Shown here piece by piece: positions 1-16,220 of a DNA stretch of 50,219 nucleotides. Each line of letters starts with the position of its first letter. The stretch's first letter is position 1. The translations under genes were made by a program, and so were the position numbers. Origin of the DNA: Shigella phage phi2457T; sequence record MH917278. One strand, given 5' to 3'. Below the pieces are notes generated by a model. The model was not told where the DNA came from and made no database searches. It saw nothing but the letters and a program-made list of their open reading frames with translations.

Positions 1-101
1 GTTGCATGGTGTGCAACTGTTGATGTGATTTTTGCTTAGAATGCAATGATTGTGAGAGGGAGGATTTAGTGTTACCCGGTTCGCCTGGTGGTCATCTCCA
101 T

Positions 102-120
102 TTTTAGCAAAACGTGCTAT
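102..120 (-). promoter_or_regulatory. conserved intergenic element copy (reverse orientation), ATAGCAC-N5-TTGCTAAAA
   Basis: Plus strand reads ttttagcaaaacgtgctat, reverse complement ATAGCACGTTTTGCTAAAA; matches the consensus repeated throughout the window. Confidence 0.4.
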
Positions 121-206
121 CGATTACACTTTAACTTGTCACGACTGTAATATTTGTCTAGAATCGCACTTGTGACAAAATTACGCACTGTGACGCATCA
201 CAATAG

Positions 207-285
207 ACATATAGATATATGTATATATATAATATATATAGTGTTTTTTTTATTTATATATATAGATAATCATATTGTAATAGTT
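207..285. repeat. AT-rich tract with TATATAGATAAT motif (shared with 30996-31057)
   Basis: Near pure A/T run atatagatatatgtatatatataatatatata...atatatagataatcatattg in noncoding left end. Confidence 0.5.
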
Positions 286-436
286 GTGTATAGCCGTCTT
301 ACATTGTCTAGCGTACTGTTGGCATATTTCTACCTGCATGTTTATATATACAGTACTTTTTTGAGGGCTATATATTTCTATAGTGACTCTAGACAGCTAG
401 ACAAATATTACACGGCTTAAAATTGGCTTGCAGTCG

Positions 437-465
437 TTGACAGCTCTACGTCGCTCTGTCACAAT
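437..465 (+). promoter_or_regulatory. candidate sigma70-type promoter upstream of first ORF
   Basis: Perfect TTGACA at 437-442, 17-bp spacer, TGtCACAAT extended -10-like at 457-465; by eye only. Confidence 0.35.
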
Positions 466-523
466 GGCAATTGTTGACATGTTATGACACCATTTACACA
501 CCAATAGACAAAGAGGGCACATT

Positions 524-1039
524 ATGAGCAATACCAATCAGGAATTAAAAATCACCGATATGATTCGACTAACCTGCGATGTAATGTACCGCGACAAAGG
601 TATGACCGAGTTCTCTTTCGTTGCTGATGATATGGCCATCGAGGCCGCGCGATTCTACTTCCGGGGCCAGGAGGTAAGCGATGCCGATCTTGAATCTGCC
701 GCTGCCGGATGGGTGGACCAGAACCAGGGGGAGGTAGAGAAGAGATTCAAGTCCGCTTTCATTACTCCGATCATTACCCGGCACTTTTGCAAGTACGGCA
801 AGGTGGCAAAGGTGAAGGTGGGCCGGAATGACGCCGCAATCACAATGATAACCGTTATCGTTACAGACGAAGAGGTTCCGGTTAAGAAGCGCCGTAGCCG
901 GAAAAAAGTTAGCCTGGCAGACTGCCTGGATTCGTTTGATGTTGATGTTATCAAGCTATCCGATAGCGAGTTAATGGTTCGTGATGTGAATGAGATCGTG
1001 CGACAGATGAAAGCACATATTGAAAAGTGTGGACTGTAA
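524..1039 (+). CDS. hypothetical protein (171 aa)
   Basis: ORF track; ATG preceded by aagaggg SD; first ORF after noncoding leader. Confidence 0.5.
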   Translation: MSNTNQELKITDMIRLTCDVMYRDKGMTEFSFVADDMAIEAARFYFRGQEVSDADLESAAAGWVDQNQGEVEKRFKSAFITPIITRHFCKYGKVAKVKVGRNDAAITMITVIVTDEEVPVKKRRSRKKVSLADCLDSFDVDVIKLSDSELMVRDVNEIVRQMKAHIEKCGL

Positions 1040-1053
1040 CGCCGATAGGTGAA

Positions 1054-1071
1054 ATAGCACTTTTTGTTAAA
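1054..1071 (+). promoter_or_regulatory. conserved intergenic element copy
   Basis: atagcactttttgttaaa immediately after stop of 524..1039. Confidence 0.45.
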
Positions 1072-1129
1072 GCCCGGTCGAGCGGATCGGGTATTATCTT
1101 CTCATCGACACGATACAGAGGAATCGAAG

Positions 1130-1324
1130 ATGGAAACGCAAATTGACGTAGTGGTTGTTCAGCGCGACTCAACTCATGAAAAGGGTCTGTTCAAGAAAGG
1201 AACCGAAATCACGATCGACATTGAGGATATGGTTGCATATCACTCGGGCCTTACCTGGAACGTGGTGCGCGTAGGCAGCGACTACAAACTCAAAGGCTTT
1301 AACACTTACTTTGCAGAGGTTTAA
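1130..1324 (+). CDS. hypothetical protein (64 aa)
   Basis: Internal ATG of ORF 1064..1324 (METQIDVV) preceded by gaggaatcgaag SD; upstream part of the ORF overlaps the conserved element. Confidence 0.45.
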   Translation: METQIDVVVVQRDSTHEKGLFKKGTEITIDIEDMVAYHSGLTWNVVRVGSDYKLKGFNTYFAEV

Positions 1325-1326
1325 TC

Positions 1327-1797
1327 ATGGCGACAATTACCGTATTTCTTGCTAAAGATGAGATTGATGGCGAAATGTCATTCTTCGCGTTTGAGCACAA
1401 GACCGGATCGCACTGGCATATGTACAGCCACTACACGGTCATCGATATCAACTCATACCGCGCAAACTCACTTACTGAAAAGCTGGGTTGCTTCATTGGA
1501 GCTATCAAGGTGAACAATGGCTGCGAGTGGGCAGATGAGCACGAAGATCGCCGCATGTGCAATATGATTAACCCGGTCTATCTTGAGTCGTTCGATCTTG
1601 ATGCTGATGTGGCTATTAAGGTGAGAAAGTCGGGTGAGTTGTTGCCAGGGATGCGTGTGCTGACTGGTTACTCGGGCCGTAAGGTGTGGCGCACTGTATC
1701 CAAGATTCGCCAGCGTTCGGCAACATGCTATAGCGTGTTCTTTGATGACGGCTGGAATGAGGTTGCTGGTAGTAACGTGAAGTATCTTACCAAATAG
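1327..1797 (+). CDS. hypothetical protein (156 aa)
   Basis: ORF track; SD gagg upstream; stop codon TAG lies inside the conserved element at 1794. Confidence 0.5.
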   Translation: MATITVFLAKDEIDGEMSFFAFEHKTGSHWHMYSHYTVIDINSYRANSLTEKLGCFIGAIKVNNGCEWADEHEDRRMCNMINPVYLESFDLDADVAIKVRKSGELLPGMRVLTGYSGRKVWRTVSKIRQRSATCYSVFFDDGWNEVAGSNVKYLTK

Positions 1798-1813
1798 CAC
1801 GAATTGTTAAAAC
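1794..1813 (+). promoter_or_regulatory. conserved intergenic element copy
   Basis: atagcacgaattgttaaaac; followed by hairpin ggggta/tacccc with ctatagt in the loop, then leader catcaaaacgagatacc and SD. Confidence 0.5.
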
Positions 1814-1875
1814 AGGATCGGGGTATCTTGCTATAGTTACCCCATCAAAACGAGATACCAACCAGAGGATTCACC

Positions 1876-2106
1876 ATGTCAATCATCAAGAACCAACAAG
1901 CCATCGACTCGACCAGCCACAACTGCTTTGCTATTTTCATCACTCGCGACAACAAGCGATTTGCTGTCAGGGCGGTACCGGGTGGGTACAAAACATACAT
2001 GGAAAATAACGGAAAGTGGGTGCGCTGCGAAAACCTTGCAAACTTCTTGGTATGGAATGGCGAGTTTCAAGGTCGTGATGATATCAGCACTTTAATTGAG
2101 GAATAA
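1876..2106 (+). CDS. hypothetical protein (76 aa)
   Basis: ORF track; SD agagga 8 nt upstream. Confidence 0.5.
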   Translation: MSIIKNQQAIDSTSHNCFAIFITRDNKRFAVRAVPGGYKTYMENNGKWVRCENLANFLVWNGEFQGRDDISTLIEE

Positions 2107-2112
2107 ATAATC

Positions 2113-2340
2113 ATGCCACGTTACAGTAACCTAACCAAACTAGTCCGCGTAAACGGGCACATGATCCCGGCAAAATCTACTCACTGCGCGAAAGGCGCAA
2201 AGCACGGATTATATTTCAAGTGGCGCGGTCAATGGAACTTCACGGCGGTGAGTAATTTTTACATGCGCGTGCCTGGAGACGATCCGCAATCAGTAGTAGA
2301 AAACTCAATCGGTGACAACAAGATCGAGGTACTAAAATGA
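2113..2340 (+). CDS. hypothetical protein (75 aa)
   Basis: ORF track; SD gagga upstream. Confidence 0.45.
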   Translation: MPRYSNLTKLVRVNGHMIPAKSTHCAKGAKHGLYFKWRGQWNFTAVSNFYMRVPGDDPQSVVENSIGDNKIEVLK

Positions 2341-2443
2341 ACTTCAATACAATAGCTCTATGGTCTGCCGTCTGGTTCTTCTGCATGGGTCACGTCATGG
2401 TCGGTATCGTGGTAATGCTTCTCCTGTGTGCGGGAGCGTTCGA

Positions 2444-2617
2444 ATGATGCGCATTCTGATTTGCATGATGGCGGCGGTCGCCCTGGCTATCCTGGTAGTG
2501 TCCGGCTGTGGCGAGGTCAAAGAGCGATGCCATGAAACCGGGAACCAGGTTACTACTTTCGTGATGGTTGGCAACGTATTGCTACCAATCACATCAAATG
2601 AAATTACTTGCGAATAG
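2444..2617 (+). CDS. putative small lipoprotein (57 aa)
   Basis: Internal ATG of ORF 2360..2617 preceded by gggag; N-terminus MMRILICMMAAVALAILVVSGC has signal peptide plus lipobox-like LVVSGC. Confidence 0.35.
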   Translation: MMRILICMMAAVALAILVVSGCGEVKERCHETGNQVTTFVMVGNVLLPITSNEITCE

Positions 2618-2626
2618 GATTTAACA

Positions 2627-2818
2627 ATGGCTGATTTTATGCACCAAATGATTGCAGTATTCAAAGGTAGCGAAGATGAGGAAGTAAAGGAATGCTTTAC
2701 CTTCAACAAGTCTTATAGCGCGTCGCTAACCAGCTTCGGGAACATCTCATTGCTTGATGATAATGGCGACCCCTGGATATTCGACGAAGATACTGATTGC
2801 TTCGAAATTAAAGAATAG
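2627..2818 (+). CDS. hypothetical acidic protein (63 aa)
   Basis: ORF track; stop TAG lies in the conserved element at 2815. Confidence 0.45.
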   Translation: MADFMHQMIAVFKGSEDEEVKECFTFNKSYSASLTSFGNISLLDDNGDPWIFDEDTDCFEIKE

Positions 2819-2834
2819 CACTTTTTGTTAAAAC
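2815..2834 (+). promoter_or_regulatory. conserved intergenic element copy
   Basis: atagcactttttgttaaaac, hairpin ggggtt/aacccc with gatatagt in loop. Confidence 0.5.
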
Positions 2835-2888
2835 TCAATTCCGGGGTTGCGATATAGTAACCCCATCGATAACGAACGAGGATTTATC

Positions 2889-3095
2889 ATGAAACTGCGG
2901 TGCATTGAATCAAATCAAATTAACTACTCAGAAGGCTTCGAATATGTCGCTCAAATCGATAGCTTTACAAACAAAAGCGGAGAGGTTATTGATGTGGTTC
3001 ATGGAGTGTATACGTGGTTCTACTTTGACAAGAAAGCTCTAACAGCAACTAAGCGCAATGGCGATGTGGTGGCTAAATTTAAACGTGAACAATGA
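2889..3095 (+). CDS. hypothetical protein, member of small paralogous family (KC(I/V)...G.IY motif)
   Basis: Internal ATG (MKLRCIESNQ) with SD gagga; N-terminal motif shared with ORFs 3107, 4856, 8516, 42579, 46453. Confidence 0.45.
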   Translation: MKLRCIESNQINYSEGFEYVAQIDSFTNKSGEVIDVVHGVYTWFYFDKKALTATKRNGDVVAKFKREQ

Positions 3096-3106
3096 GGATT
3101 GAAATC

Positions 3107-3595
3107 ATGAAAATTAAATTACTTTGCACTGGCGGTTACAAGGGCTTTACTCGCGACCTGGAATCTGACCCTATTATCGTTGACGCCGTGAAGTGCAATG
3201 ATAGCATTGGCGGCTACCGCGTCAAAGTCGATGACCTGGTTAAAGCTGGCGTGTACGATCTCAATTGCGGCCTATCGGTTAGTCCGGTATTTGGCCCGGC
3301 TGACTTCAACGAGAAGGACGGAACTATGTTCTTTTTCGATTGGGAAGTGCGGGCAAACATCAAGCCTCGCAAGGTTCGACTTCTCAACAATGGCGGTTAT
3401 CCTATGCTACCAGGTTATGAGAATCGCACATTCCCGGTTATTGTTGACTTTGAAGAAATAACCACACACTTAGCTTATATCAACGGTGAACAGCTTCATG
3501 CTGTTGGATTCGTGGGAGGTATGAATCAAGAGGCGCTGTGCTTCTTCCATCGCGAATCAGAGCCGTTCGATATTGAGTGTGAGCTAGTCTACTAA
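3107..3595 (+). CDS. hypothetical protein (162 aa)
   Basis: ATG with SD gagga 8 nt upstream; N-terminus MKIKLLCTGGYKGF resembles the paralogous family. Confidence 0.5.
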   Translation: MKIKLLCTGGYKGFTRDLESDPIIVDAVKCNDSIGGYRVKVDDLVKAGVYDLNCGLSVSPVFGPADFNEKDGTMFFFDWEVRANIKPRKVRLLNNGGYPMLPGYENRTFPVIVDFEEITTHLAYINGEQLHAVGFVGGMNQEALCFFHRESEPFDIECELVY

Positions 3596-3611
3596 GCACG
3601 AATTGTTAAAA
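3594..3611 (+). promoter_or_regulatory. conserved intergenic element copy
   Basis: aagcacgaattgttaaaa, hairpin ggggatt/aatcccc. Confidence 0.45.
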
Positions 3612-3660
3612 GGGGATTCGTCCTGACTGGTACAATCCCCACATCGACCACCAAGAGGAA

Positions 3661-4152
3661 ATGATTATGTTGAAATTAAACGAGATTAAATTCCCTGTAG
3701 TTTTTAACACCATTAGCTGCGGTAAAATAACCTGCCACAGCAAAGATCGTGCAACTGATTCGTCATTCAATGAGTGTCACCCGTCGATTGTTGGTAATCT
3801 CATTGAGCTTCATAACAATCACAATCCTGATAACATCCCATCTCTTCCATATTATGTTGAGAGTGCCGGGCCTGGTTGGAAAGTTGGTCGGGCCATCTTT
3901 CATGAATCAAAGCCAGAAATCAAGCCATCGCTACAGTGCACTCAGATCGAGAATATGCCACTTAGCGCAACGCTAAAAGGTGTCCAGATTAGCAGCGATT
4001 CTTGGGTTGAGATTACCGCGACACCAAAAACTATTGAGGTGCACGACGATATCATCACGCTTCTATTGCATCACGGCGGCTTCAAGAACAAGACGGTATC
4101 AGGTGAAATCAGCATTAAGCGCGGAACGCTTGTCCGCTATGAGGTGAAATAA
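3661..4152 (+). CDS. hypothetical protein (163 aa)
   Basis: ORF track; SD aagagga upstream. Confidence 0.5.
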   Translation: MIMLKLNEIKFPVVFNTISCGKITCHSKDRATDSSFNECHPSIVGNLIELHNNHNPDNIPSLPYYVESAGPGWKVGRAIFHESKPEIKPSLQCTQIENMPLSATLKGVQISSDSWVEITATPKTIEVHDDIITLLLHHGGFKNKTVSGEISIKRGTLVRYEVK

Positions 4153-4301
4153 TGGCTGCATGGGTATTGATTATCTTGATGAGCACCGGGCCGGATCACG
4201 TATACATGGAAAGTCAGCAAGCATGTAACAAGGCTCGGGAAGTGATTGCAGAAAACAAGCCGTTCGGATACGAAGTAAAAACAATGTGTGTTAAACGATA
4301 G
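4152..4301 (+). CDS. putative small membrane protein (49 aa)
   Basis: ATG overlaps previous stop (ATAATGG); hydrophobic N-terminus MAAWVLIILMS; stop TAG is the TAG of the conserved element at 4298, as for neighbouring genes. Confidence 0.3.
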   Translation: MAAWVLIILMSTGPDHVYMESQQACNKAREVIAENKPFGYEVKTMCVKR

Positions 4302-4316
4302 CACGAATTGCTAAAC
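4298..4316 (+). promoter_or_regulatory. conserved intergenic element copy
   Basis: atagcacgaattgctaaac, hairpin aaggcca/tggcctt with gatatagt in loop. Confidence 0.5.
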
Positions 4317-4381
4317 CTTCCGCAAGGCCATTTGATATAGTGGCCTTATTGAAGCACGGCAACCAATCAGAGGAATCAGCT

Positions 4382-4588
4382 ATGGCTACACGACTCACGC
4401 AGTGGCAGATTTACGACAAGGCTTCACGCCTTCGTGAATCACTTCGAGGTCTGACACCGAACGATCGCATAGAAATCATCGGTCATGCATTGCACGAACT
4501 AACGCCGCATGACGTAACCTATCATTCTTGCGGCAATAAATTTTGGAACGTAACATTCGAGGTGAAGGAAGATGAGCAAAACTCATAA
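4382..4588 (+). CDS. hypothetical protein (68 aa)
   Basis: Internal ATG (MATRLTQ) preceded by conserved leader aaccaatcagaggaatcagct. Confidence 0.45.
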   Translation: MATRLTQWQIYDKASRLRESLRGLTPNDRIEIIGHALHELTPHDVTYHSCGNKFWNVTFEVKEDEQNS

Positions 4589-4859
4589 ATTAAAAATCGC
4601 CACGGTACATTTCATTGGGGTAATGAACGGAACAAAAACGGCAGAGTTCCGCATCAATGACCGCAACTTCCAGCCTGGAGATATCCTGGAGCTATGCGAG
4701 TTCGATCGTGACGAGTTTACCGGGTGGGAAGTTCACGCCAGGGTGTCCGATGTTACAGACGTGACGCCATACATCAATCGCGGGTATGACGATCAGGAAT
4801 GCGACTTCACGCAATACGTGATGTTATCAATCAAACCTTACAGGAAGGTTAGACCATGA
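4572..4859 (+). CDS. hypothetical protein (95 aa)
   Basis: ORF track; SD gaagga; overlaps neighbours by a few nt (translational coupling). Confidence 0.45.
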   Translation: MSKTHKLKIATVHFIGVMNGTKTAEFRINDRNFQPGDILELCEFDRDEFTGWEVHARVSDVTDVTPYINRGYDDQECDFTQYVMLSIKPYRKVRP

Positions 4860-5494
4860 AATTTGAATGCGTATCAAGTGACGGAACGGGATTTAAGTGG
4901 GGAAAAATCTACGAAGGCGCTCGCGTCAATAACGACAGCTTCGTTGTCGTGGATGAGCACGGTAGCAATGTGAACATCATCCGTCGTCACGAATACCAAG
5001 AAATTTTCCTGCCGTATGGCGGTAGTTCAAAATATATCTTCCATCGAATCGTGGATGGTGTTAAATTTAACGACGTAATCGAAGCAATCAACCAACTGCA
5101 TAATAAAGAGGTAAAATTTATGAAATTCGAATGTATCAGTGATAACACCAAAAAATTTACCGTCGGCAAAATTTACGACGTTCCCTCTGAGCACGCTAAG
5201 CACACGGCTGTAATTACCGACGACACGGGCCGCAACCGCATTGCAACCGTAACTCACAACGGCGAGGGTCTTCGCTGGAATAGCGGCGGCACTAAGTTTG
5301 CAACGTTCGGCAAGAAGCGCAAGCGCACTTTTTGCGTAAATGGCAAGGTTACAGCAAACAAGATCCACAACGTCAAGCCATCGGAAGTTGATCGTAAGCC
5401 AGCGACGAAGTTTGAAGAGAAAGCAGATTTGTCTGGTCTGGCTATCGCTCTTGTTCTCCTGGTCGCTTCTATTTCGCTGATGTTCATCATGTAA
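4856..5494 (+). CDS. membrane-anchored protein with internal tandem duplication of the paralogous small domain
   Basis: MKFECVSSDGTGFKWGKIYEG... repeated as MKFECISDNTKKFTVGKIYDV...; C-terminal hydrophobic segment LAIALVLLVASISLMFIM. Confidence 0.5.
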   Translation: MKFECVSSDGTGFKWGKIYEGARVNNDSFVVVDEHGSNVNIIRRHEYQEIFLPYGGSSKYIFHRIVDGVKFNDVIEAINQLHNKEVKFMKFECISDNTKKFTVGKIYDVPSEHAKHTAVITDDTGRNRIATVTHNGEGLRWNSGGTKFATFGKKRKRTFCVNGKVTANKIHNVKPSEVDRKPATKFEEKADLSGLAIALVLLVASISLMFIM

Positions 5495-5642
5495 TGTTAA
5501 CGGGGAATCGGCTCTGAACGGTTCCCCTTTCTTTTGGAGAAAATTCTATGCCAGACTTTGATAACTGGAAAAACGAGCCGCCATCATTTCAGGAGTTGCT
5601 ATTCTGCCTCCTGGTTCTGACAATATCTCTTAAGGGTGTTTT

Positions 5643-5861
5643 ATGGCTACTATCATGACAGCGGAAGATGCAGCGCGTGACGCAGTGGAAGGGATGCGCC
5701 CAAATACCTCCAGAATCGCACACTACTACAATTTTGACGTGTCGGCAGTGCAGCTGGTCCATGAAATTTTAAGGCTTCCACAAGTCGATTCAGCGCGACT
5801 GGTGACGTGCTTAAAAAATTATTTTTGCATCACTATTAAAACGAATAGCACGAATTGCTAA
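5643..5861 (+). CDS. hypothetical protein (72 aa)
   Basis: ORF track; weak SD; 3' end overlaps the conserved element. Confidence 0.35.
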   Translation: MATIMTAEDAARDAVEGMRPNTSRIAHYYNFDVSAVQLVHEILRLPQVDSARLVTCLKNYFCITIKTNSTNC

Positions 5862-5864
5862 AAC
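5845..5864 (+). promoter_or_regulatory. conserved intergenic element copy
   Basis: atagcacgaattgctaaaac, hairpin ggggaat/attcccc. Confidence 0.5.
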
Positions 5865-5918
5865 CTATCAAGGGGAATGCGCTATGATTCCCCTACACCA
5901 ACGAACGAGGGAACACTC

Positions 5919-6365
5919 ATGAAACATTTGATTTGCATTGATACACCTAACAATGAACACACCCTGCACGGCATTGGAATGTTCAAAGGCCACTACATGA
6001 CAGCAAGCATTTATGATGCGCATCGAGGCGATGGCGATCTAATGATTACTTCAAAAGAAGTTAATCCGTACATCATGCAGAATCTCGGGAACAATGAGTA
6101 TATGGCTTACGGCTGCAACGCGGTGTACAAGCATATCAAGATCCGCAAGCGCGTAGTTCGCGCATTCAAGAAGATTGCAATTAAATACTGGAAGATGAGC
6201 AAGAAGGACGCCGGAACATGGGCGCGTAACGTTGCTGATTCATACTTCTATCGTAACGGTGAGTCGTGCTACTTTTTGATCGATGATATTCATGACAATT
6301 ACGGCGGCTCATTCAGTCAGGAAGAGTTTGATAGCTGGGCTGAATACGAGATCAGTTGCTGGTAA
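5919..6365 (+). CDS. hypothetical protein (148 aa)
   Basis: Internal ATG (MKHLICID) after leader acgaacgagggaacactc. Confidence 0.5.
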   Translation: MKHLICIDTPNNEHTLHGIGMFKGHYMTASIYDAHRGDGDLMITSKEVNPYIMQNLGNNEYMAYGCNAVYKHIKIRKRVVRAFKKIAIKYWKMSKKDAGTWARNVADSYFYRNGESCYFLIDDIHDNYGGSFSQEEFDSWAEYEISCW

Positions 6366-6384
6366 TAGCACTAATTGCTAAAAC
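6365..6384 (+). promoter_or_regulatory. conserved intergenic element copy
   Basis: atagcactaattgctaaaac, hairpin aagggcat/atgccctt with gatagaa loop. Confidence 0.5.
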
Positions 6385-6448
6385 TTGCTCAAGGGCATTT
6401 GATAGAATGCCCTTCGTTGAGTTAAGCAACCAATCATAGGAATAAATC

Positions 6449-6982
6449 ATGGATAAAATTACCATTTGGGGTCAAACTATCAACCTGTTTCTCGGCACGC
6501 GACGCGTGGCAATCTTTGACTTTGACGGAACGCTTAGTGATGGATCAAAGCGCCTTCACCTGTTGCCGACAAAGGATTTGCACTTAACTGAAAGCTGGTC
6601 TGAGTTTAACCGAGCGGCAATATTTGATAACCCAATCCAGAGCACGATTGAGGTTATGAACTCTATGTTTGCTGCCGGGTATCACGTAATAGTTTTAACC
6701 GGGCGAAGTGATGAGGTTCGTTACGCATCTGAGTTATGGCTTAAGCATCACGGTGCGAGATATGATTACTTAGTCATGCGACCGCACACAGACAACAGGA
6801 AAGACACGGTGATGAAAGAAGAAGCGGTGCGAGCGATCGGTATTGAAAACATCCTGGCAGCTTGGGATGACTCACCGCAAATTATTCCATTATTCCGGTC
6901 GCTTGGAATAACAACATATGCGGTAGTTGACTATGGCGATAACATTCACGATCATTTAAAATCGCACGGGGTAGAGAAATGA
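6449..6982 (+). CDS. HAD-superfamily phosphatase-like protein
   Basis: Motif I FDFDGTL, motif II-like VLTGRS, motif IV-like WDDSP; resembles the phosphatase domain of polynucleotide kinase/phosphatase or a nucleotidase. Confidence 0.55.
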   Translation: MDKITIWGQTINLFLGTRRVAIFDFDGTLSDGSKRLHLLPTKDLHLTESWSEFNRAAIFDNPIQSTIEVMNSMFAAGYHVIVLTGRSDEVRYASELWLKHHGARYDYLVMRPHTDNRKDTVMKEEAVRAIGIENILAAWDDSPQIIPLFRSLGITTYAVVDYGDNIHDHLKSHGVEK

Positions 6983-7090
6983 ACCTATACGAATTTATTG
7001 CAGCACATCCGGTATTGACGGTTATCATCCTGCTAATCATCAATCACACCATCATCAATATGGCAAAATTATTTTTAGGGAGATACTAAC

Positions 7091-7663
7091 ATGAAAACAG
7101 CTATCATTTTAAACGGCGCTCCTGGAGCAGGCAAGGACACTATCGGATGCATCCTGGCTGACACTTACGATCATGTAGCTTTGCGCAGCTTCAAAGCACC
7201 AATGTTTGAGATTGCTCGGGCAATCCTGGGTGAGGCTAACTACGAGTATTTCATGTTCTTGTATGGGAACCGTATATACAAAGAAGAGCCAGATTCCATC
7301 CTGAACGGTAAAAGCCCGCGCCAGTTTATGATCTGGATTAGCGAGGAAGTCATTAAGCCACAGTTCGGAAATCGCTTCTTCGGCATGCGAGCGGAAAGCA
7401 AGGTCAAAGAATCAGACTCCCTTTCGGTATTTACTGATGGTGGATTCAAAGATGAGGTATTGCAGATGATTGAAGGTGATATCCAGGTCAAGCTATGCCG
7501 AATCCACCGCAAAGGCTGCAACTTTGACAACGACAGTCGTGATTATATTTACCTGGAAGATATGATCGGGGTTAATGGTTATCAGGAGTGTGATTTCTTC
7601 TCTGTCGAAGGTCATCCAGAAATTACCGCTCAGCACATAGCCGCTACGTTCATCAACAAATAG
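7091..7663 (+). CDS. P-loop nucleotide kinase (dNMP-kinase-like)
   Basis: Walker A GAPGAGKDT at N-terminus; size ~190 aa typical of small NMP/dNMP kinases. Confidence 0.5.
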   Translation: MKTAIILNGAPGAGKDTIGCILADTYDHVALRSFKAPMFEIARAILGEANYEYFMFLYGNRIYKEEPDSILNGKSPRQFMIWISEEVIKPQFGNRFFGMRAESKVKESDSLSVFTDGGFKDEVLQMIEGDIQVKLCRIHRKGCNFDNDSRDYIYLEDMIGVNGYQECDFFSVEGHPEITAQHIAATFINK

Positions 7664-7679
7664 CACGAATTGCTAAAAC
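7660..7679 (+). promoter_or_regulatory. conserved intergenic element copy
   Basis: atagcacgaattgctaaaac with downstream gatatagt. Confidence 0.5.
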
Positions 7680-7735
7680 GTCGGTGGGGTGATTTGATAT
7701 AGTTACCTCATCGACAACGAAGAGAGAAAATCGAA

Positions 7736-7945
7736 ATGATGGTATCAACTGATAAGTTTTTCACTTGCACTAAAACTTCTGAAGTATTCGAACTCGTTCA
7801 TACTGATAACGGTGATTTCATGCATGACGGTTGCGACGTTTTCATTGAAGTGAAAGAAAGCGACTATGATGACGGAGTTTATTACAACCCGGCAGTTAAC
7901 ACTCAGTTTTTTACACCGATCGAAGATGAAGGAGAAGAGGCATGA
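7736..7945 (+). CDS. small acidic protein (69 aa)
   Basis: ORF track; Asp/Glu-rich (DYDDGVYY, EDEGEEA). Confidence 0.4.
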   Translation: MMVSTDKFFTCTKTSEVFELVHTDNGDFMHDGCDVFIEVKESDYDDGVYYNPAVNTQFFTPIEDEGEEA

Positions 7946-8286
7946 TTACGATTAACCTATCAGAGAAGCAAGCTCGTGAAATCCTTGATGCGATCGGCGA
8001 CCAATTGCACGTAAAAGGAGCAACTGCCGAGTTGCTCAACCAGATCGAAAAGCAACTTACTCCTGTTTCAACGAATCAAGCTGAGTTTGCAGCCTGGAAG
8101 AGCGAGCGCATCCTGCCAAATATCATCAAGGCATGGAAGCGCAAGCATAAAAAAGAAATCAATGTTGATGACTTATTTTCTGATGAATTAAGTCCTTCAA
8201 AGGTTGCTCAATATCAGTTGCGATACATGGAATCAGTTTGCAATCAGGTCTTAAATGTCAACTTTTCATTCGGGAGTGGTAAATAA
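7942..8286 (+). CDS. hypothetical protein (114 aa)
   Basis: ORF track; ATGA start/stop overlap with upstream gene; SD gaagga. Confidence 0.45.
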   Translation: MITINLSEKQAREILDAIGDQLHVKGATAELLNQIEKQLTPVSTNQAEFAAWKSERILPNIIKAWKRKHKKEINVDDLFSDELSPSKVAQYQLRYMESVCNQVLNVNFSFGSGK

Positions 8287-8516
8287 TGTTTGGTTTAAGT
8301 GAAGCGGAATGGAACGTGGTAAAGCGCGCGGCGAAGGAATTGAATAAATTTGTTAGCGGAATGAAGAAGGAAGATCGCAAAAACGAAAAGATTATGATTG
8401 ATGTGATCTCAACTCATCACAAAAAGGTTGAGCTACTCATCGACCGCTACAAGTTTGTATGGACCGCCGGATATATTGCAGGGCGCGTAGGTAACAAAGA
8501 GGGTGATTACGAATAA
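8286..8516 (+). CDS. hypothetical protein (76 aa)
   Basis: ORF track; SD gggag; TAATG coupling. Confidence 0.4.
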   Translation: MFGLSEAEWNVVKRAAKELNKFVSGMKKEDRKNEKIMIDVISTHHKKVELLIDRYKFVWTAGYIAGRVGNKEGDYE

Positions 8517-8719
8517 TGGCTAACTTACCGAAGAAAGGCGATCAGGTTCGATGTGTTACATCACGCAATGGTGATGCTTTCTCAGCGGGATGCTTGTATG
8601 ACGTTGAAAAAGTAAGTAAAGCAAAGAGACTCGTATTTGTATACGGAGACGATGGAAATATTCATGAGATTGACTACCCGCAGGATATTACTAAGGGCCA
8701 ATTTGAAATTAATGATTGA
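8516..8719 (+). CDS. hypothetical protein, paralogous-family-like (67 aa)
   Basis: ORF track; VRCVTSRNGDAFSAGCLYDV resembles the KC(I/V)...G.IY motif. Confidence 0.4.
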   Translation: MANLPKKGDQVRCVTSRNGDAFSAGCLYDVEKVSKAKRLVFVYGDDGNIHEIDYPQDITKGQFEIND

Positions 8720-8883
8720 CCTGAATCTCTGAGCGGTGATAGTATTAATCCCGTAGACAGACGAGGCGCAAATAAGCGCAACGCGTGAGACGATTCTCAC
8801 ACTTCCAGCTAACAAGCTCGGTTGCATAGTGGTTAAGCAACGCCGCAGACCCGTAAGCGGCAACAATTCAAGAGGATTGCGTA

Positions 8884-9045
8884 ATGCAAAATATCAAAAA
8901 CGAATCAGTCAAAATCGAAATTAAAGTAACTCGCAACGGCAAAACAACTCGTTATAAAAAGCGGTTAAATCATGGAGAGGCTGTTATTGGTCGCATCGAT
9001 GGCGTTATGATTAAGGCGCAAGAAGATGAAGCGATTCAAAGTTAA
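8884..9045 (+). CDS. hypothetical small protein (53 aa)
   Basis: ATG with strong SD aagagga; below ORF-track length cutoff. Confidence 0.3.
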   Translation: MQNIKNESVKIEIKVTRNGKTTRYKKRLNHGEAVIGRIDGVMIKAQEDEAIQS

Positions 9046-9212
9046 ATTGATCATTCGAAAGATGGGGATGTTTTGCCAATCATGCAAACAATCTTTCGAG
9101 ACTGAATTATCGGCAACCAGTCAGGCAGAAGCCATCGCGAAAGCAAAAAAACTTTCCGGCGCAAACCTTGACACTCACAAAATAAACATTGAATTAATTA
9201 AGGAGATCTAAC

Positions 9213-9440
9213 ATGGAAATTTTTTTATGGATTATCGCTGGTATCGTTATTTTTGGTGCTGGTTTATTTTCTGGCTTCGCACTTGTGGCGGCAGCAATTG
9301 CGATGGACGCGAAGGATAAAACTGGTGTATGGCTTACCTACTCACCAAAGAAGGATCAATGGGAAATGACTGGCGATCTTGCTCACTGCTACTCTAAAGC
9401 TCAGACCCACCCTAAAGGCATTAAACGACGATTATCGTGA
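9213..9440 (+). CDS. small membrane protein (75 aa)
   Basis: SD aaggag; N-terminal hydrophobic segment IFLWIIAGIVIFGAGLFSGFALVAAAIA; followed by terminator. Confidence 0.5.
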   Translation: MEIFLWIIAGIVIFGAGLFSGFALVAAAIAMDAKDKTGVWLTYSPKKDQWEMTGDLAHCYSKAQTHPKGIKRRLS

Positions 9441-9448
9441 TAAATACT

Positions 9449-9471
9449 AACCCGCTACGGCGGGTTTTTTT
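9449..9471 (+). terminator. rho-independent terminator
   Basis: Hairpin cccgctacggcggg followed by TTTTTTT. Confidence 0.65.
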
Positions 9472-9490
9472 ATGCCTGCAATATGGTAAA

Positions 9491-9509
9491 ATAGCACTAA
9501 ATGTTAAAC
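9491..9509 (+). promoter_or_regulatory. conserved intergenic element copy upstream of terminase small subunit
   Basis: atagcactaaatgttaaac preceded by ctgcaatatgg -10-like. Confidence 0.45.
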
Positions 9510-9524
9510 AAAGAGGGTATATTT

Positions 9525-10049
9525 ATGAGTGAACCTAAGAACGCTCCCGTAGTTCAGGGTGGTAATTTCAAAGAGCTATACAAGAAAAAGTTCGGCACTG
9601 TTCTTGCGAAGAATCGGACCATGACGCCTGAGCAATTATTCGATCTATCAGTTAAGTATTTCGAATGGGCTGAGGACAATGCGATCAAGGCGTCTGAATC
9701 AGCCAGCTTTCAGGGTGGCGTGTACGAATCTCTTGTTCATAAGCCTCGGGTGTTCACCTGGACAGGGTATCGACTATTCATCGGTGCAAGTGAGGCCGCT
9801 ATCATTAAGTGGAAGCGAGAAGAGGAATATAGCGAGGTTATGGAGTTCGTGGAATCTGTAATCAACGAGCAAAAATTCCAACTTGCCGCCAACGGTGTTA
9901 TTAACGCCTCCTTTATCGGCAAGGATCTCGGGATCGATAAGCCAGCCTCAATCAATATCGAAAACTCAGCAGCTTCAGCATCTACCTCTGTTGCCACCAC
10001 TGAGGATGCAATGAAAGAGGCAGTGAACAGCATTCTTGACATGCTTTAA
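9525..10049 (+). CDS. terminase small subunit (putative)
   Basis: Position immediately upstream of terminase large subunit; ~175 aa; SD aaagaggg; identity by synteny only. Confidence 0.5.
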   Translation: MSEPKNAPVVQGGNFKELYKKKFGTVLAKNRTMTPEQLFDLSVKYFEWAEDNAIKASESASFQGGVYESLVHKPRVFTWTGYRLFIGASEAAIIKWKREEEYSEVMEFVESVINEQKFQLAANGVINASFIGKDLGIDKPASINIENSAASASTSVATTEDAMKEAVNSILDML

Positions 10050-10088
10050 CGTTACGGGCGCGAAAGCGCCCATGAAGGAGATTTAATT

Positions 10089-11657
10089 ATGATTCAATGG
10101 GAAGACCTCGACGCAACTCAGAAGTTAGCGATCAAGAAAATGAGTGAGGCGAATTTCGAAAAGATGATTAGGATCTGGTTCCAGCTTATGCAGGCTCAGC
10201 AGTTCCAGCCTAACTGGCATCACCTTTATTTATGTCACGAAGTTGAGGAAATAATTGCAGGTCGACGCGGGAACACTATCTTTAACGTCACGCCAGGTTC
10301 GGGTAAAACCGAGGTGTTCTCAATTCACCTTCCTGTTTACGCAATGCTCAAGTGCAAGAAGGTACGAAACCTTAACGTTTCATTTGCAGATAGCCTTGTA
10401 AAGCGTAACAGTAAGCGAGTTCGTGAGATTATCAGCAGCAAAGAGTTCCAAGAGTTGTGGCCCTGTAAGTTCGGCACATCGAAAGATGAAGAGATGCAAG
10501 TTCTTAACGAAGATGGCAAGGTCTGGTTCGAGCTAATATCCGCAGCAGCCGGAGGTCGAATCACAGGTTCGCGTGGTGGCTATATGATGCCGGGATTCTC
10601 CGGGATGGTAATGCTCGACGATATAGACAAGCCTGACGATATGTTCTCAAAGGTTAAGCGTGAGCGTACTCACATGCTATTGAAGAACACCATACGATCC
10701 CGTCGTATGCACAACGAGACGCCGATTATCGCAATCCAGCAGCGACTGCACGCGCAGGATTCAACTTGGTTTATGATGAATGGAGGTATGGGTATTGAGT
10801 TTGACCAGATCTCGATCCCGGCACTGGTGACTGAAGAATACGGAAAGACACTTCCTGACTGGTTGCAGCCTTATTTCGAGCGCGACGTTTTGTCGTCTGA
10901 GTATGTAGAATTGGATGGTGTTAAGCATTATTCATTCTGGCCCAGCAAGGAGAGTGTTCACGACCTATTGGCTTTGCGCGAAGCGGACCAGTACACCTTT
11001 GATTCTCAGTACCAGCAGAAGCCGATCGCACTTGGCGGCTCCGTGTTTAACTCGGAATGGTGGACTTATTACGGCAGCAGTCTTGACGCTAACGAGCCAG
11101 ATCCGGGCAAATATGATTACCGTTTCATCACTGCCGATACCGCTCAGAAGACAGGTGAACTAAACGACTACACGGTGTTTTGCTTATGGGGTAAGAAAAA
11201 CGATAAGGTTTACTTTATCGACGGCATTCGCGGCAAGTGGGAAGCGCCTGATATGGAGAAACAATTTACCGCCTTCGTGAATCAGGCATGGAGGCACAAT
11301 AAATCAATGGGTGTGCTTCGCAAAATCTACGTGGAAGATAAGGCGAGCGGGACGGGCTTGATTCAGAACTTAAGGAAAAAGACTCCGATCTCAATCACAC
11401 CATTGCAGCGTAACAAAGATAAAGTTACCCGAGCTATGGATGCTCAGCCAGTAATTAAGGCCGGGCGCGTGGTTCTTCCAGAAGAGCACCCTATGCTTGC
11501 GGAAATCATCGCAGAACATAGCGCCTTCACTTATGATGATACTCACCCTCATGATGATATTGTCGATAACTTCATGGATGCGGCGAACATCGAATTGCTG
11601 ACCATTGATGATCCTATCGAGAGAATGAAGCGACTCGCTGGGATGGTTAAGCGGTAA
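10089..11657 (+). CDS. terminase large subunit
   Basis: 522 aa; N-terminal ATPase region with P-loop-like VTPGSGKTEV and acidic DDIDKPDD, C-terminal nuclease-like region; followed by portal. Confidence 0.85.
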   Translation: MIQWEDLDATQKLAIKKMSEANFEKMIRIWFQLMQAQQFQPNWHHLYLCHEVEEIIAGRRGNTIFNVTPGSGKTEVFSIHLPVYAMLKCKKVRNLNVSFADSLVKRNSKRVREIISSKEFQELWPCKFGTSKDEEMQVLNEDGKVWFELISAAAGGRITGSRGGYMMPGFSGMVMLDDIDKPDDMFSKVKRERTHMLLKNTIRSRRMHNETPIIAIQQRLHAQDSTWFMMNGGMGIEFDQISIPALVTEEYGKTLPDWLQPYFERDVLSSEYVELDGVKHYSFWPSKESVHDLLALREADQYTFDSQYQQKPIALGGSVFNSEWWTYYGSSLDANEPDPGKYDYRFITADTAQKTGELNDYTVFCLWGKKNDKVYFIDGIRGKWEAPDMEKQFTAFVNQAWRHNKSMGVLRKIYVEDKASGTGLIQNLRKKTPISITPLQRNKDKVTRAMDAQPVIKAGRVVLPEEHPMLAEIIAEHSAFTYDDTHPHDDIVDNFMDAANIELLTIDDPIERMKRLAGMVKR

Positions 11658-11711
11658 TAAATGAGATATAATCAAGGCTGTCAATTGACGGCCTTTTTTA
11701 TTGGAGGAAAC

Positions 11712-12995
11712 ATGAAAATTGTTAAGCATGATGGATATAACGATATCTTTAACGGCGGTGCGGACGGCTCACCTAAGCCATTCTTTATGTCCGACGCATC
11801 ATATCACGTCGGCTCTTTCTACAACGATAACGCCACAGCAAAGAGGATTGTAGACGTAATACCTGAAGAAATGGTTACGGCTGGATTTAAAATATCAGGC
11901 GTCAAGGATGAAAAAGAGTTCAAATCTCTGTGGGATAGTTACAAAATTGATCCTAGCTTGGTTGATGTTCTTTGCTGGGCGCGCCTATACGGTGGGGCGG
12001 CTATTGTAGCAATCATTAAAGACAACAGAATGCTAACCAGTCCAGTTAAACCTGGAGCTAAACTTGAAGGTGTGCGTGTTTACGATAGGTTCGCAATTAC
12101 AATCGAAAAAAGAGTAACCAATGCGCGATCGCCTCGCTATGGTGAGCCTGAGATCTATAAGGTGTCGCCCGGTGACAACATTCAACCTTACTTAATCCAC
12201 CACACGAGAATTTTCATTGCTGATGGTGAGAGAGTTACCCCTCAGATGCGGAAGCAGAATCAGGGGTGGGGTGCTTCAGTTTTGAATAAGTCACTGATTG
12301 ATGCAATCTGCGACTACGACTATTGCGAATCACTTGCGACTCAGATCCTGCGGCGTAAGCAACAGGCGGTATGGAAGGTCAAAGGTCTTGCCGAAATGTG
12401 CGATGATGACGATGCTCAGTATGCTGCGCGCCTGCGACTTGCTCAGGTTGATGACAACTCCGGAGTAGGCCGTGCGATCGGTATCGATGCTGAGACGGAA
12501 GAATACGATGTTCTAAACTCTGATATCAGCGGAGTGCCTGAGTTCTTATCGAGCAAGATGGATCGTATTGTTTCCCTTTCCGGGATTCATGAGATTATCA
12601 TCAAAAATAAGAACGTAGGCGGCGTATCAGCGAGTCAAAACACAGCACTTGAGACTTTCTATAAGCTGGTAGATCGTAAGCGTGAGGAAGATTACAGGCC
12701 TCTTCTTGAGTTCTTGCTGCCGTTCATTGTTGACGAGCAAGAGTGGTCGATCGAGTTCGAGCCTTTATCCGTTCCGAGCAAGAAAGAGGAATCAGAGATC
12801 ACGAAGAATAACGTTGATTCGGTTACGAAAGCTATCACTGAGCAAATCATCGATCTGGAAGAAGCTCGCGACACGTTGCGATCTATTGCCCCTGAGTTCA
12901 AACTCAAGGATGGTAATAACATCAACATTCGCGAACCTGAAGAAACAACCGAACCGGAACCGGGATTAGGGGAGAAGTTAGAAGATGAAAATTAA
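11712..12995 (+). CDS. portal protein
   Basis: ~427 aa ORF directly after terminase; internal ATG with SD ggagga; acidic C-terminus; synteny. Confidence 0.8.
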   Translation: MKIVKHDGYNDIFNGGADGSPKPFFMSDASYHVGSFYNDNATAKRIVDVIPEEMVTAGFKISGVKDEKEFKSLWDSYKIDPSLVDVLCWARLYGGAAIVAIIKDNRMLTSPVKPGAKLEGVRVYDRFAITIEKRVTNARSPRYGEPEIYKVSPGDNIQPYLIHHTRIFIADGERVTPQMRKQNQGWGASVLNKSLIDAICDYDYCESLATQILRRKQQAVWKVKGLAEMCDDDDAQYAARLRLAQVDDNSGVGRAIGIDAETEEYDVLNSDISGVPEFLSSKMDRIVSLSGIHEIIIKNKNVGGVSASQNTALETFYKLVDRKREEDYRPLLEFLLPFIVDEQEWSIEFEPLSVPSKKEESEITKNNVDSVTKAITEQIIDLEEARDTLRSIAPEFKLKDGNNINIREPEETTEPEPGLGEKLEDEN

Positions 12996-13746
12996 TGGCG
13001 TTGCTACTCAGTGGCGCTATCCTGAAATGAGCGAGCGCGCAATGTCGCGCTCCCTACAGGATATTGCAGCCAAACTAACTGAAAAAATGCGTGACGAATT
13101 AAAGCTGATGAAATTTGATGCTACCGACGAAGAGATAGATCAGGCAGAAAGGTCATTGCTTAATTACGTTGAATCACTCATCGCGCCGATTATCGGTTCT
13201 CTATCATCCGTTGCGCTCACGATCTATAAATTCAACTCTAAGCAGTGGCTGCGCATCGCTCGCAATGCTGGAGGTAAGAAGAATCAAGCCGTGATGCTAC
13301 TTGCCCTGATTGGTCCTACCGCTGCCGAAAGTTGGTACTCAGGACAATATAATCTGTGGCGATCGCAGGTGACTACTTCTATCAGGAAATTTGCCGCCAA
13401 CATGGTTACTGATTTCACTGATAAACTTCGTGCGGCATCCGGTCAGGGCAAAAGCAAGGATTTTGTTGTTGAGCTTGCTAAGGAGCGATTTGGTATTTAC
13501 CGGAATTGGGCCAAAAATAGAGCATCGGGAATTGTCGGAACCTGGAACAGTAGACTAATGCGGCAGCGCATAAAAGACGCTGGTGTCTCTTATTATTTCT
13601 GGCGAGGGGTGATGGATTTACGCGAACGTGAAAAACATGTAAGATGGGAAGGTAAGCGTATAGCGGTAGATTCCGATCACGTATTTCCGGGTGAAGAATA
13701 CAATTGCCGCTGTTGGGCTGTTCCAGACTTTTCCACAGGAGATTAA
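12985..13746 (+). CDS. head morphogenesis protein (SPP1 gp7 / Mu F-like minor capsid)
   Basis: 253 aa after portal; conserved C-terminal region ending ...VFPGEEYNCRCWAV typical of this family. Confidence 0.65.
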   Translation: MKINGVATQWRYPEMSERAMSRSLQDIAAKLTEKMRDELKLMKFDATDEEIDQAERSLLNYVESLIAPIIGSLSSVALTIYKFNSKQWLRIARNAGGKKNQAVMLLALIGPTAAESWYSGQYNLWRSQVTTSIRKFAANMVTDFTDKLRAASGQGKSKDFVVELAKERFGIYRNWAKNRASGIVGTWNSRLMRQRIKDAGVSYYFWRGVMDLREREKHVRWEGKRIAVDSDHVFPGEEYNCRCWAVPDFSTGD

Positions 13747-13748
13747 AA

Positions 13749-14861: not shown

Positions 14862-14872
14862 GGGGAAATATC

Positions 14873-15349
14873 ATGGCACAGATTAATGCATCTTATCAGC
14901 GAGACATGGCTATTGCGCTTCCGGGTATGGTTGCGGATACTTCGAAGTATAATATTGATGGCGCTTGCGTCGTTAACGAAGGTGATGTTTTTGTTGGCGC
15001 CGCCGTACAGGTTGTTCAAGCCCAAGCCGTTGATGGCCATAAATTGGTTAAGGCTATGGAATCGTCTAAAGTGCCGTATGGCGTAGCTATTCGATCTCAC
15101 TGGCAGACTGTGAATAAAGATAATCAGATGATTTACGAAGATGGCGGCGCTATCAACGTGATTACCTCCGGTAGAGTTTGGATGCTTTCCAAATCAGAAG
15201 AGGCGCCAACTTTCGGGACCGCTGTAAAACTTGACGTTGACGGTCAAGAGAAATCTGACGGTACGATCGAAACCACTTGGACCTACGCTGGCGGTTGGAC
15301 CAAATATAAAGACATTCAGCTTGTTGAAGTTCAGTTGCATCAACTGTAA
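14873..15349 (+). CDS. capsid-associated structural protein, paralogue A (decoration-like)
   Basis: Shares N-terminal domain with the next gene (DTSKYNIDGACV / DTSNYNIDGSCV; PYGVAIRS / PYGIAFRS); located before major capsid. Confidence 0.5.
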   Translation: MAQINASYQRDMAIALPGMVADTSKYNIDGACVVNEGDVFVGAAVQVVQAQAVDGHKLVKAMESSKVPYGVAIRSHWQTVNKDNQMIYEDGGAINVITSGRVWMLSKSEEAPTFGTAVKLDVDGQEKSDGTIETTWTYAGGWTKYKDIQLVEVQLHQL

Positions 15350-15364
15350 TTAGTGTTTAATATG

Positions 15365-15396: not shown

Positions 15397-15409
15397 TGGA
15401 GAAAATACT

Positions 15410-16177: not shown

Positions 16178-16196
16178 CACAAAAACACTTTGACGC

Positions 16197-16215: not shown

Positions 16216-16220
16216 ATTGA

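Follow-up and report, generated by a model that had tools for sequence, protein, structure and literature searches.

Paralogous AT-rich cores flanked by repeats in the divergent early region and upstream of recE of Shigella phage phi2457T

The 50,219-nt sequence of Shigella phage phi2457T (record MH917278; hereafter, the window) is a complete T1-like genome, opened at the conventional left end of phage T1, such that its position 1 aligns with position 1 of the T1 reference. At the nucleotide level it is 92-96% identical to Tunavirus (T1-like, Drexlerviridae) phages that infect Escherichia and Shigella. The genome contains two large non-coding regions and no others. The first, region A, comprises ~680 bp (50062-50219 together with 1-523) between two divergent early-gene arms, of which the leftward one begins at 50060 and encodes a methylase and a DUF3987 helicase, and the rightward one, beginning at 524 with small early genes, extends to the terminase at 9.5 kb. 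The left third of this region, 50062-50219, joins position 1 directly when the DNA is circular or concatemeric, as it does in the records of circularly permuted relatives, and thus the true unit is ~680 bp. A preliminary description of the locus, made from the letters of the window, had treated 1-523 as a regulatory left-end region; the segment is indeed non-coding and regulatory in character, with non-random repeats, but it is not self-contained, since it extends into 50062-50219. The second, region B (30838-31363), lies between cor (leftward) and recE-erf-ssb (rightward), with an AT core at about 30996-31056.

That 1-523 lacks a credible open reading frame (ORF), as the same description had held, is borne out by comparison. 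The only ORFs are 154-420(+), which has a TTG start and encodes a low-complexity Ile/Tyr/Phe sequence, and 397-537(-), and relatives carry 1-, 4- and 10-nt insertions or deletions in the segment. Because the ORFs are of low complexity and are broken by the relatives' frameshifting indels, 1-523 is non-coding and a hidden gene is ruled out. The ORF at 31000-31155(-) in region B was likewise rejected as a gene, as a 2-nt deletion in phage JMPW1 would shift its frame. Rfam covariance models gave no match at E ≤ 1 in 1-700 or 30750-31450, a tRNA search of the whole window found none, and folding of 130-430 as single-stranded DNA gave a z of only -2.6.

Both regions are centered on DNA of exceptionally low duplex stability. 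In a nearest-neighbour stability scan with 60-bp frames (genome mean -1.366 +/- 0.081 kcal/mol per step), the least stable frame of the genome was 209-268, at -0.883 kcal/mol per step, within the AT-rich core of region A (203-275). The second was 30996-31055 in region B, at -0.91, and the next reached -1.10. The two cores lie at z ~5-6 and the next frame at z ~3-4 in the window as well as in T1, the Klebsiella phage KP1801 (Webervirus) and IME253 (Rtpvirus). The core at 203-275, a candidate DNA-unwinding element, is nearly identical in T1 and all aligned Tunavirus genomes.

The two cores are also related in sequence. Local alignment of 216-291 with 31001-31076, upstream of recE, gave a score of 54, compared with 24.2 +/- 3.2 (maximum 38) for dinucleotide shuffles and 25.0 +/- 3.4 (maximum 37) for shuffles within 40-nt blocks, which preserve local AT content; of 300 shuffles of each kind, none scored as high as 54. 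The resemblance of the AT tract to one at 31.0 kb, which the preliminary description had noticed by eye, is therefore significant in a formal alignment, and the core, along with one of its flanking sites, has a paralogue in the element upstream of recE. Several words, TATATAGATA (259; 31010), TAGATAAT (263; 31018) and GTTGTGTA (283; 31057), are each confined to these two places in the genome, as is a 12-mer that had escaped earlier mention, TTACACACCAAT (494; 31280). The 12-mer was considered as a sign that the two regions co-evolve and was rejected, as it does not track allele type (see below) in region B. In nine Tunavirus genomes, ~140 bp of region B (30985-31125, the core and its right flank) are almost invariant and the neighbouring intergenic DNA varies. 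This is a tighter constraint than an AT-rich spacer should need. A third divergent region, at 36973-37270, was examined as a similar element and set aside; it has no AT core, its shared sites are limited to one 21-nt repeat, and most of it is coding in T1.

Repeats flank both cores and are enriched there, in mixed direct and inverted copies with irregular spacing rather than as tandem iterons. The 15-mer TGTAAYANNTGTNTA has seven matches at ≤1 mismatch in the whole genome versus 0.46 expected, an enrichment that is inflated because the pattern was derived from these same data. Six of the seven fall within the two regions (146+, 276+, 398-, 30918+, 31061+ and 31281-), three per region and in the same order in both (plus, plus, minus). 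In region A the first site, S1 (TGTAATATTTGTCTAG, 146..161, +), is the left arm of a perfect 16-nt inverted repeat (146-161/397-412) and overlaps the -10 hexamers of a candidate bidirectional promoter described below. S2 (TGTAATAGTTGTGTATAGC, 276..294, +) adjoins the core and has its counterpart at 31061-31075, S3 (TTGTCTAG) lies at 304..311(+), and the cluster S4 (387..412, -) contains two tandem CTAGACA words plus AATATTACA, with 397-412 forming the right arm of the inverted repeat. The sites of region B are at 30918-30932(+), 31061-31075(+), 31079-31093(+) and 31281-31295(-). Region B also contains a palindrome, TTTTGTAAC-N10-GTTACAAAA (30934-30961), just upstream of the cor promoter. The arms of this palindrome are invariant and its 10-nt spacer is hypervariable in nine Tunavirus genomes, a pattern that would be the textbook footprint of a dimer-binding site and predicts one here.

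The motifs listed in the preliminary description are all present, and the positions given there mostly held up to within a base. TTGTCTAG at 154 (given as 155) and 304, with its complement CTAGACAA at 397, accounts for all three copies in 50,219 bp, and the string ctctagacagctagacaa is present at 387-404 (given as 388-405). The shorter 7-mer CTAGACA/TGTCTAG has four of its five genome copies in 1-523, at 155, 305, 389 and 397. The tetramer CTAG is itself strongly avoided genome-wide (30 copies), and four of these lie within 1-523. Some of the inverted symmetry in the region is less telling. An imperfect 23-nt inverted repeat, 155-177/457-479 (18 of 23 positions complementary), was equalled in 58 of 100 block shuffles, and because shuffles that preserve composition match it so often, it lacks significance and was discarded as a shared operator. 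Exact inverted repeats of at least 16 nt arise in 5 of 100 block shuffles, probably from self-complementary TA runs.

Comparison among relatives revealed how these repeats vary. The segment from 128 to ~740 was grouped by allele in 17 Tunavirus genomes, of which 10 are W-type (including this phage), 6 are T-type (including T1) and one, phage vB_SsoS_008, is a recombinant with remnants of both allele types, the only mixed case. W-type genomes carry TGTCTAG at window positions 155+, 305+, 389- and 397-. T-type genomes never do; at the corresponding sites (T1 145+, 316+, 399- and 408-) they carry TGTTAAT(C), with GGTTAATC in addition at 417-. S1 is invariant in the 10 W-type genomes and reads GTGTTAAyxxTTGTaTA instead in the 6 T-type genomes, the T-type position aligned with S3 has TGTTAATC, and S4 is replaced by three tandem copies of CGATTAAC(A/C). 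An extra TGTTAATC is found at T1 501+, in a segment absent from W-type genomes. In contrast, S2 is kept in both allele groups. A coordinated swap of words at the same places indicates a change of recognition specificity and is hard to explain otherwise, which argues for the TGTCTAG/TGTTAAT(C) repeats of Tunavirus being putative protein-binding sites. The mosaic module 128-~740 covers the flanking repeats, the spacer of the main promoter and the N-terminal half of the first gene. Within it, one further block, cATGTTTATATATACAGTa (338..358, +), is identical in the W- and T-type consensus and resembles a LexA box or an extended -10. As a LexA (SOS) box it fails the consensus CTGT-N8-ACAG, as 339-354 reads ATGT-N8-ACAG, and no full CTGT-N8-ACAG box was found in the genome.

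The same architecture is seen in other genera. In T1, KP1801 and IME253, the divergent early region and the region upstream of recE again each hold one of the two least stable segments. The pairs of AT-cored regions span 6692-7440 and 22673-23167 in KP1801 and 7479-8184 and 36693-37105 in IME253. The repeats around them are different ones. In KP1801, 14 of the 19 genome copies of GTAAGAT/ATCTTAC fall in the two equivalent regions, among them a palindrome, GTAAGATGCATCTTAC, that is the same in both. In IME253, the cores can be aligned with each other over ~120 nt at roughly 85% identity, TGTATACTGTGTAACG is found on both sides of the early-region core, and GTGTAAC-type sites recur in both regions. 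These repeats lend independent support to the suggestion, already made in the preliminary description, that the two AT-rich regions may share a binding protein. The elements have the same polarity with respect to their downstream genes in all three genera, and in KP1801 the equivalent of region B directly follows the primase gene. An AT-cored region of ~500 bp upstream of recE, with different repeats, is seen in other genera, and in KP1801 and LL5 it is kept between co-directional genes, so that it is not a mere by-product of divergent promoters. The paired AT-cored regions in these further Drexlerviridae genera indicate that the feature is family-wide and not phage-specific.

The strongest promoter candidates of the genome cluster in the same two regions. 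A sigma-70 weight-matrix scan of the genome (99.99th percentile, 9.1) placed them at 136+, 204+, 437+, 31305+ and 30895-. The first belongs to a candidate bidirectional promoter at 136..178. Its rightward half has TTGTCA (136-141), a 17-nt spacer and TAGAAT (159-164), with a score of 12.0 and a predicted start near 171(+), and its leftward half has TTGTCA (178-173), an 18-nt spacer and AATATT (154-149), with a score of 8.4 only and a predicted start near 142(-). T-type phages have TTGATT-17-TATGAT at the place of the 136+ promoter despite the sequence divergence. The preliminary description had called the TTGTCAC/GTGACAA copies operator-like; the inverted pair is real, at 136 and 172 (given as 135 and 169), but it is best read as the two -35 hexamers of this predicted promoter rather than as an operator, and what had been listed as a third copy near 456 is an imperfect match (cTGTCACA at 457). 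A bidirectional promoter here would supply the otherwise missing promoter of the leftward arm. Inside the AT core, the promoter-like combination of TAGACA (204-209), an 18-nt spacer and TATAAT (228-233) scores 11.3, with a predicted start near 240(+).

The predicted main rightward early promoter, at 437..465(+), combines TTGACA, a 17-nt spacer and the extended -10 (TGt)CACAAT, scores 12.1 and has a predicted start near 472(+). Both hexamers are kept in 16 genomes, W- and T-type, and 12 of the 20 columns of 441-460 vary within the W-type. Because its hexamers are conserved while the spacer (mostly 441-460) varies, 437+ fits the signature of a working promoter, and the region is annotated as a promoter in phage SA12KD. 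Two TTGACA hexamers had been listed earlier, at 437 and 474, and both are exactly there; the first is the conserved -35, but the second has no -10 partner in the weight-matrix scan. Repeats overlap these promoter elements, as is characteristic of operators. TGTCTAG at 155-161 overlaps the -10 at 159-164, and TGTCACA at 457-463 overlaps the -10 at 460-465 and, with TATGACA at 484-490, flanks the predicted start of 437+. The 5' untranslated region of the first gene (494..523, +) contains TTACACACCAAT and an ATAGACA motif, and its ribosome-binding site, AAGAGGG, immediately precedes the ATG at 524. In region B, the recE promoter has TTGACT (31305), a 16-nt spacer and TATAAT (31327-31332), with a score of 13.3 and a predicted start near 31339(+), and the cor promoter has TTGCAA (30895-30890), a 17-nt spacer and TACAAT (30872-30867), with a score of 10.7 and a predicted start near 30860(-). 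The weight-matrix scan found no conserved promoter reading into the region B core. We found no literature on transcription starts or origin mapping in Drexlerviridae.

Two proteins are candidates for binding these sites. The first gene of the rightward arm (524..1039, +; 171 aa, phrog_11083) is a candidate binder by virtue of its N-terminal half, which co-segregates with the repeat type and alone tracks the specificity of the allele-specific sites. The second is a Cro-like helix-turn-helix protein, the homologue of T1 ST23, encoded next to the primase gene at 36520..36972(-). It matches Pfam P22_Cro at E = 5.5e-5, which is below the Pfam gathering threshold, belongs to phrog_2856 ('transcriptional regulator') and is 97% identical to its T1 counterpart and 53% to that of KP1801. 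It is the sole recognisable sequence-specific DNA-binding protein among the ORFs scanned; a search for another regulator in the early arms covered 20 further ORFs, all of 'unknown function' or unrelated to transcription. Because it is 97% identical in both allele groups, the Cro-like protein could match the conserved TGTAAC-type sites and not the allele-specific ones, and it is a candidate binder of the former. Elsewhere in the arms, the product of the second rightward gene, 1130-1324(+), matches Pfam PF25180 'Phage antiviral trigger protein Gp54' (E = 5e-36) and hence is a known trigger of a bacterial defence system, and the promoter-proximal part of the leftward arm (48507-50077), with ~5 genes including a DNA methyltransferase, has no T1 counterpart.

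From these comparisons we consider it probable that the repeats beside the cores function as binding sites, and that core and adjacent site together constitute a functional module which is both conserved and duplicated. The role of this module is a more tentative matter. The interpretation we favor, while giving it somewhat less than an even chance, is that regions A and B may be a pair of protein-bound unwinding modules of origin type, coupled to the control of early promoters. One or more phage-encoded sequence-specific proteins would bind the flanking repeats at both loci, the candidates being the Cro-like protein at the TGTAAC-type sites and, where TGTCTAG and TGTTAATC alternate, an allele-specific factor. 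Their binding, together with negative supercoiling from the outward-firing early promoters, would open the AT core, and the two elements would act as origin-type unwinding sites and would be the replication origins of the phage. As these sites coincide in part with the -10 and start regions of early promoters, their occupancy could also shut down or time early transcription.

The origin-type interpretation is favored because the cores are extreme stability outliers, flanked by repeats and beside replication and recombination genes (region B adjoins recE-erf-ssb), and because they are kept where promoters alone would not need them. The exceptionally low duplex stability of an unwinding element is shown by both cores in four genomes. 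A further reason is that the literature reports no origin found in T1-like phages (PMC11447400; PMC7718038). The paper on phage TLS states that it found no iteron-like repeats (PMC11447400).

Predicted features here can be set against well-characterized origins. The SPP1 origins oriL and oriR share initiator-binding boxes next to an AT-rich segment, and the initiator, G38P, and its binding are established experimentally. The present phage is likewise a pac-type headful siphovirus with two distant non-coding elements that combine repeated boxes with an adjacent meltable AT segment, one of them close to replication genes. Unlike in SPP1, however, the repeats are mixed direct and inverted with no defined box pair, one element adjoins the packaging end and early promoters, and the elements are known from sequence. 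At the primary origin of T7, promoters read into an AT-rich segment, and the phage's own RNA polymerase and a primase recognition site are used. The predicted 136+ promoter, with its start near 171, similarly reads straight into the core at 203-275, which is consistent with transcriptional activation of opening, whereas the promoter here is of host type and no conserved promoter into the region B core was found.

Several observations weigh against an origin. The evidence for it comes from sequence and comparison, and the repeats are not regularly spaced tandem iterons. Host-type accessory sites are essentially missing from the two regions; there are no DnaA boxes in 1-523 or 30838-31363, no GATC cluster, and a single match to the IHF consensus, in region B, although DnaA, IHF and GATC accessory sites are optional for phage origins. 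(GATC is very frequent genome-wide, with 251 copies, and occurs zero times in 1-523 and zero times in 30838-31363.) The base-by-base invariance of the region B core in nine genomes would exceed the need of an unwinding element that depends on composition only. Region B does not co-vary with the allele type of region A, and therefore the allele-specific sites are not common to both Tunavirus loci. The product of the first gene gave no significant structural match, and physical linkage could by itself explain why it co-varies with the repeats. T1 concatemers reportedly form by recombination, according to older work, such that initiation may not need a classical origin. Finally, AT-rich DNA with repeats overlapping strong promoters is also typical of a purely transcriptional control region.

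Indeed, a purely transcriptional early control region is nearly as likely, and we regard it as a real possibility of roughly one-in-three weight. The repeats would then be operators of a phage regulator that switches off or times the early promoters, with no replication role, and the AT cores would be curved or UP-like upstream DNA or a platform for nucleoid proteins. This explanation accounts well for the clustering of the genome's strongest promoter candidates in the two regions, for the conserved hexamers and variable spacer of 437+, for the coverage of the -10 elements at 159-164 and 460-465 by TGTCTAG and TGTCACA, for a Cro-like regulator as the sole recognisable DNA-binding protein, for the lack of host-type origin features (DnaA boxes, GATC sites) and for an invariance beyond mere AT-richness. 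The divergent early/late promoter region of phi29, with repeated p4 sites, is a precedent in which regulator and sites are defined experimentally. As there, a divergent promoter region of a lytic phage carries several spaced inverted sites that overlap or flank promoters, the regulator here being a candidate, but in phi29 the region is the only one of its kind, with no extreme AT core that recurs at a second place. Transcriptional control leaves unexplained why the cores stand 100-250 bp from the main promoters, too distant for UP elements, and why a large AT-cored region is kept between co-directional genes in KP1801 and LL5. Nor does promoter control require two extreme low-stability outliers in four genomes.

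An alternative form of the origin idea, in which region A would be a plasmid-like origin-plus-initiator cassette in a lytic phage, is doubtful. The first gene (524-1039) would encode a winged-helix-type protein whose variable N-terminal half reads TGTCTAG here and TGTTAATC in T1, and this protein would bind around the AT core, open it and repress its own promoter. The order of AT element, repeats, promoter overlapped by inverted copies, and first gene resembles that of iteron and rep cassettes such as lambda ori, F RepE and pPS10 RepA, and the first gene has a variable half that co-segregates with the repeats. In contrast to those cassettes, regular tandem iterons and DnaA boxes are lacking, no rep-like gene lies beside the recE element, and the fold similarity of the first gene is too weak to count as evidence.

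The preliminary description had also suggested a genome terminus or packaging (pac) region. This proved apt for the first ~130 bp by homology, but not for the TGTCTAG or AT-tract repeats. Positions 1-127, with 50108-50219, constitute a conserved packaging-end (pac-proximal) block recognised by homology to T1 and KP1801. As in the T1 left end, to which it is directly homologous (1-127 is ~97% identical to T1 1-127), it carries a copy of the T1-family 21-nt repeat at 103-120(-). The following 128-205 is diverged and close to unalignable, and unlike the block, 128-523 belongs to the other allele group than that of T1. Alignment of 50108..17 with KP1801 7384..7236 scored 54 (shuffles, 22.7 +/- 2.9). 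The small terminase subunit is 98% identical to that of T1 and 51% to that of KP1801, and the block 50108-127 is conserved in step with it, whereas 128-523 is not. Within the block are two TTGCA-N5-TGCAA palindromes (2-16 and 32-46), a direct repeat ATGTGATTnTTGC (copy 1 from 50212 across the junction to 5, copy 2 at 23-35, 30 bp apart), and 4 of the 13 genome copies of TATTCCA/TGGAATA, at 50132-50180. TATTCCA/TGGAATA words are also present in the equivalent block of KP1801.

The T1 pac site was placed in the left-end untranslated region by a published comparison (PMC7718038), and the T1 record annotates a repeat_region, 1..2800, as terminal redundancy from headful packaging. Position 1 of the window, the start of this T1 repeat, thus corresponds by homology to the end at which packaging of the first headful begins. 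Although pac lies within or next to the small terminase gene in P22, SPP1 and Sf6, here that gene (9501-10049) is ~9.5 kb from the block, and it is likewise distant in T1. A terminus/pac assignment of 50108-127, made by homology and annotation only, appears reasonable. The start positions of relatives' records were not used as terminus evidence, as they mostly follow the T1-orientation convention, which is explicit in the KanT1 paper. The copy of the 21-nt repeat at 103-120(-) has zero mismatches to the consensus aaATAGCACnnnTTGnTAAAA of the TLS paper (PMC11447400) and is oriented with local transcription, and a degenerate copy lies at about 50118-50138(-). Genome-wide, this repeat (ATAGCACnnnTTGnTAAA) has 25 copies at ≤2 mismatches versus 0.48 expected, including 103-120(-) and 1054-1071(+); nearly all point in the direction of local transcription, and a hairpin follows at least two of them. 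What the repeat does is listed as an open question in the TLS paper (PMC11447400).

It is improbable, by contrast, that the whole array of repeats and AT tract is a pac site bound by the small terminase subunit, with the 31.0-kb copy as a secondary packaging site. Other phages, P1 and SPP1 among them, have multi-repeat pac sites, which would count in its favor, as do the coincidence of position 1 with the start of the annotated T1 terminal repeat and the published placement of T1 pac in this untranslated region (PMC7718038). However, the small terminase is 98% identical to that of T1, yet the TGTCTAG/TGTTAATC sites differ completely, and it is this conservation of the terminase while the repeats are swapped that makes the array an unlikely pac site. 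Terminase-matched conservation is confined to 50108-127, and as the TGTCTAG and AT-tract repeats lie in the allele-group-variable segment, the pac-type evidence does not apply to them. A second pac at 31 kb would, in addition, give a second series of ends, which is neither annotated nor reported in the sources, and the AT core begins ~200 bp inside the annotated end.

Least of all do we credit the view that the regions have no specific function and that the repeats are by-products of a low-complexity AT-rich spacer and of exchange between two intergenic regions by recombination or gene conversion: TA-rich DNA readily gives repeats (an exact inverted repeat of at least 16 nt in 5 of 100 block shuffles), the 23-nt inverted repeat lacks significance, the 12-mer common to both regions does not follow allele type and the regions sit at mosaic junctions, but repeats that contain G/C are located outside the TA runs and do not vary within an allele group, motifs are replaced in a coordinated manner at corresponding sites, the two-element architecture recurs with its own repeats in two further genera of other family lineages, and CTAG, avoided genome-wide at 30 copies, is found 4 times in 1-523.

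As judged from sequence, then, the ~680-bp locus reads as a real, functional, multi-part control region that is ordinary in kind. Its 21-nt repeat and the left-end location of pac are already described; for the paired AT cores with their flanking and swapped repeats, we found no description in the literature covered, which did not include the original T1 genome paper. T1 is a classic T phage and a notorious laboratory contaminant, yet no origin has been found according to the genome papers (PMC11447400; PMC7718038). The comparisons reported here offer two precise candidate sites of ~70 bp, with the same architecture in three Drexlerviridae genera, together with repeat sites and two candidate binding proteins, and with these the origin question of T1-like phages becomes directly testable. 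The two allele groups constitute a natural specificity swap. Were the cassette idea true, the replication origins of T1-like phages would be identified, with a sister element upstream of recE, and they would be exchangeable origin-specificity modules that recombine between co-infecting phages. If the elements are purely transcriptional, they would still define the early on/off control sites of the phage family. Either outcome would help in engineering T1-like therapeutic phages and in deciding where their genomes can safely be opened or modified.

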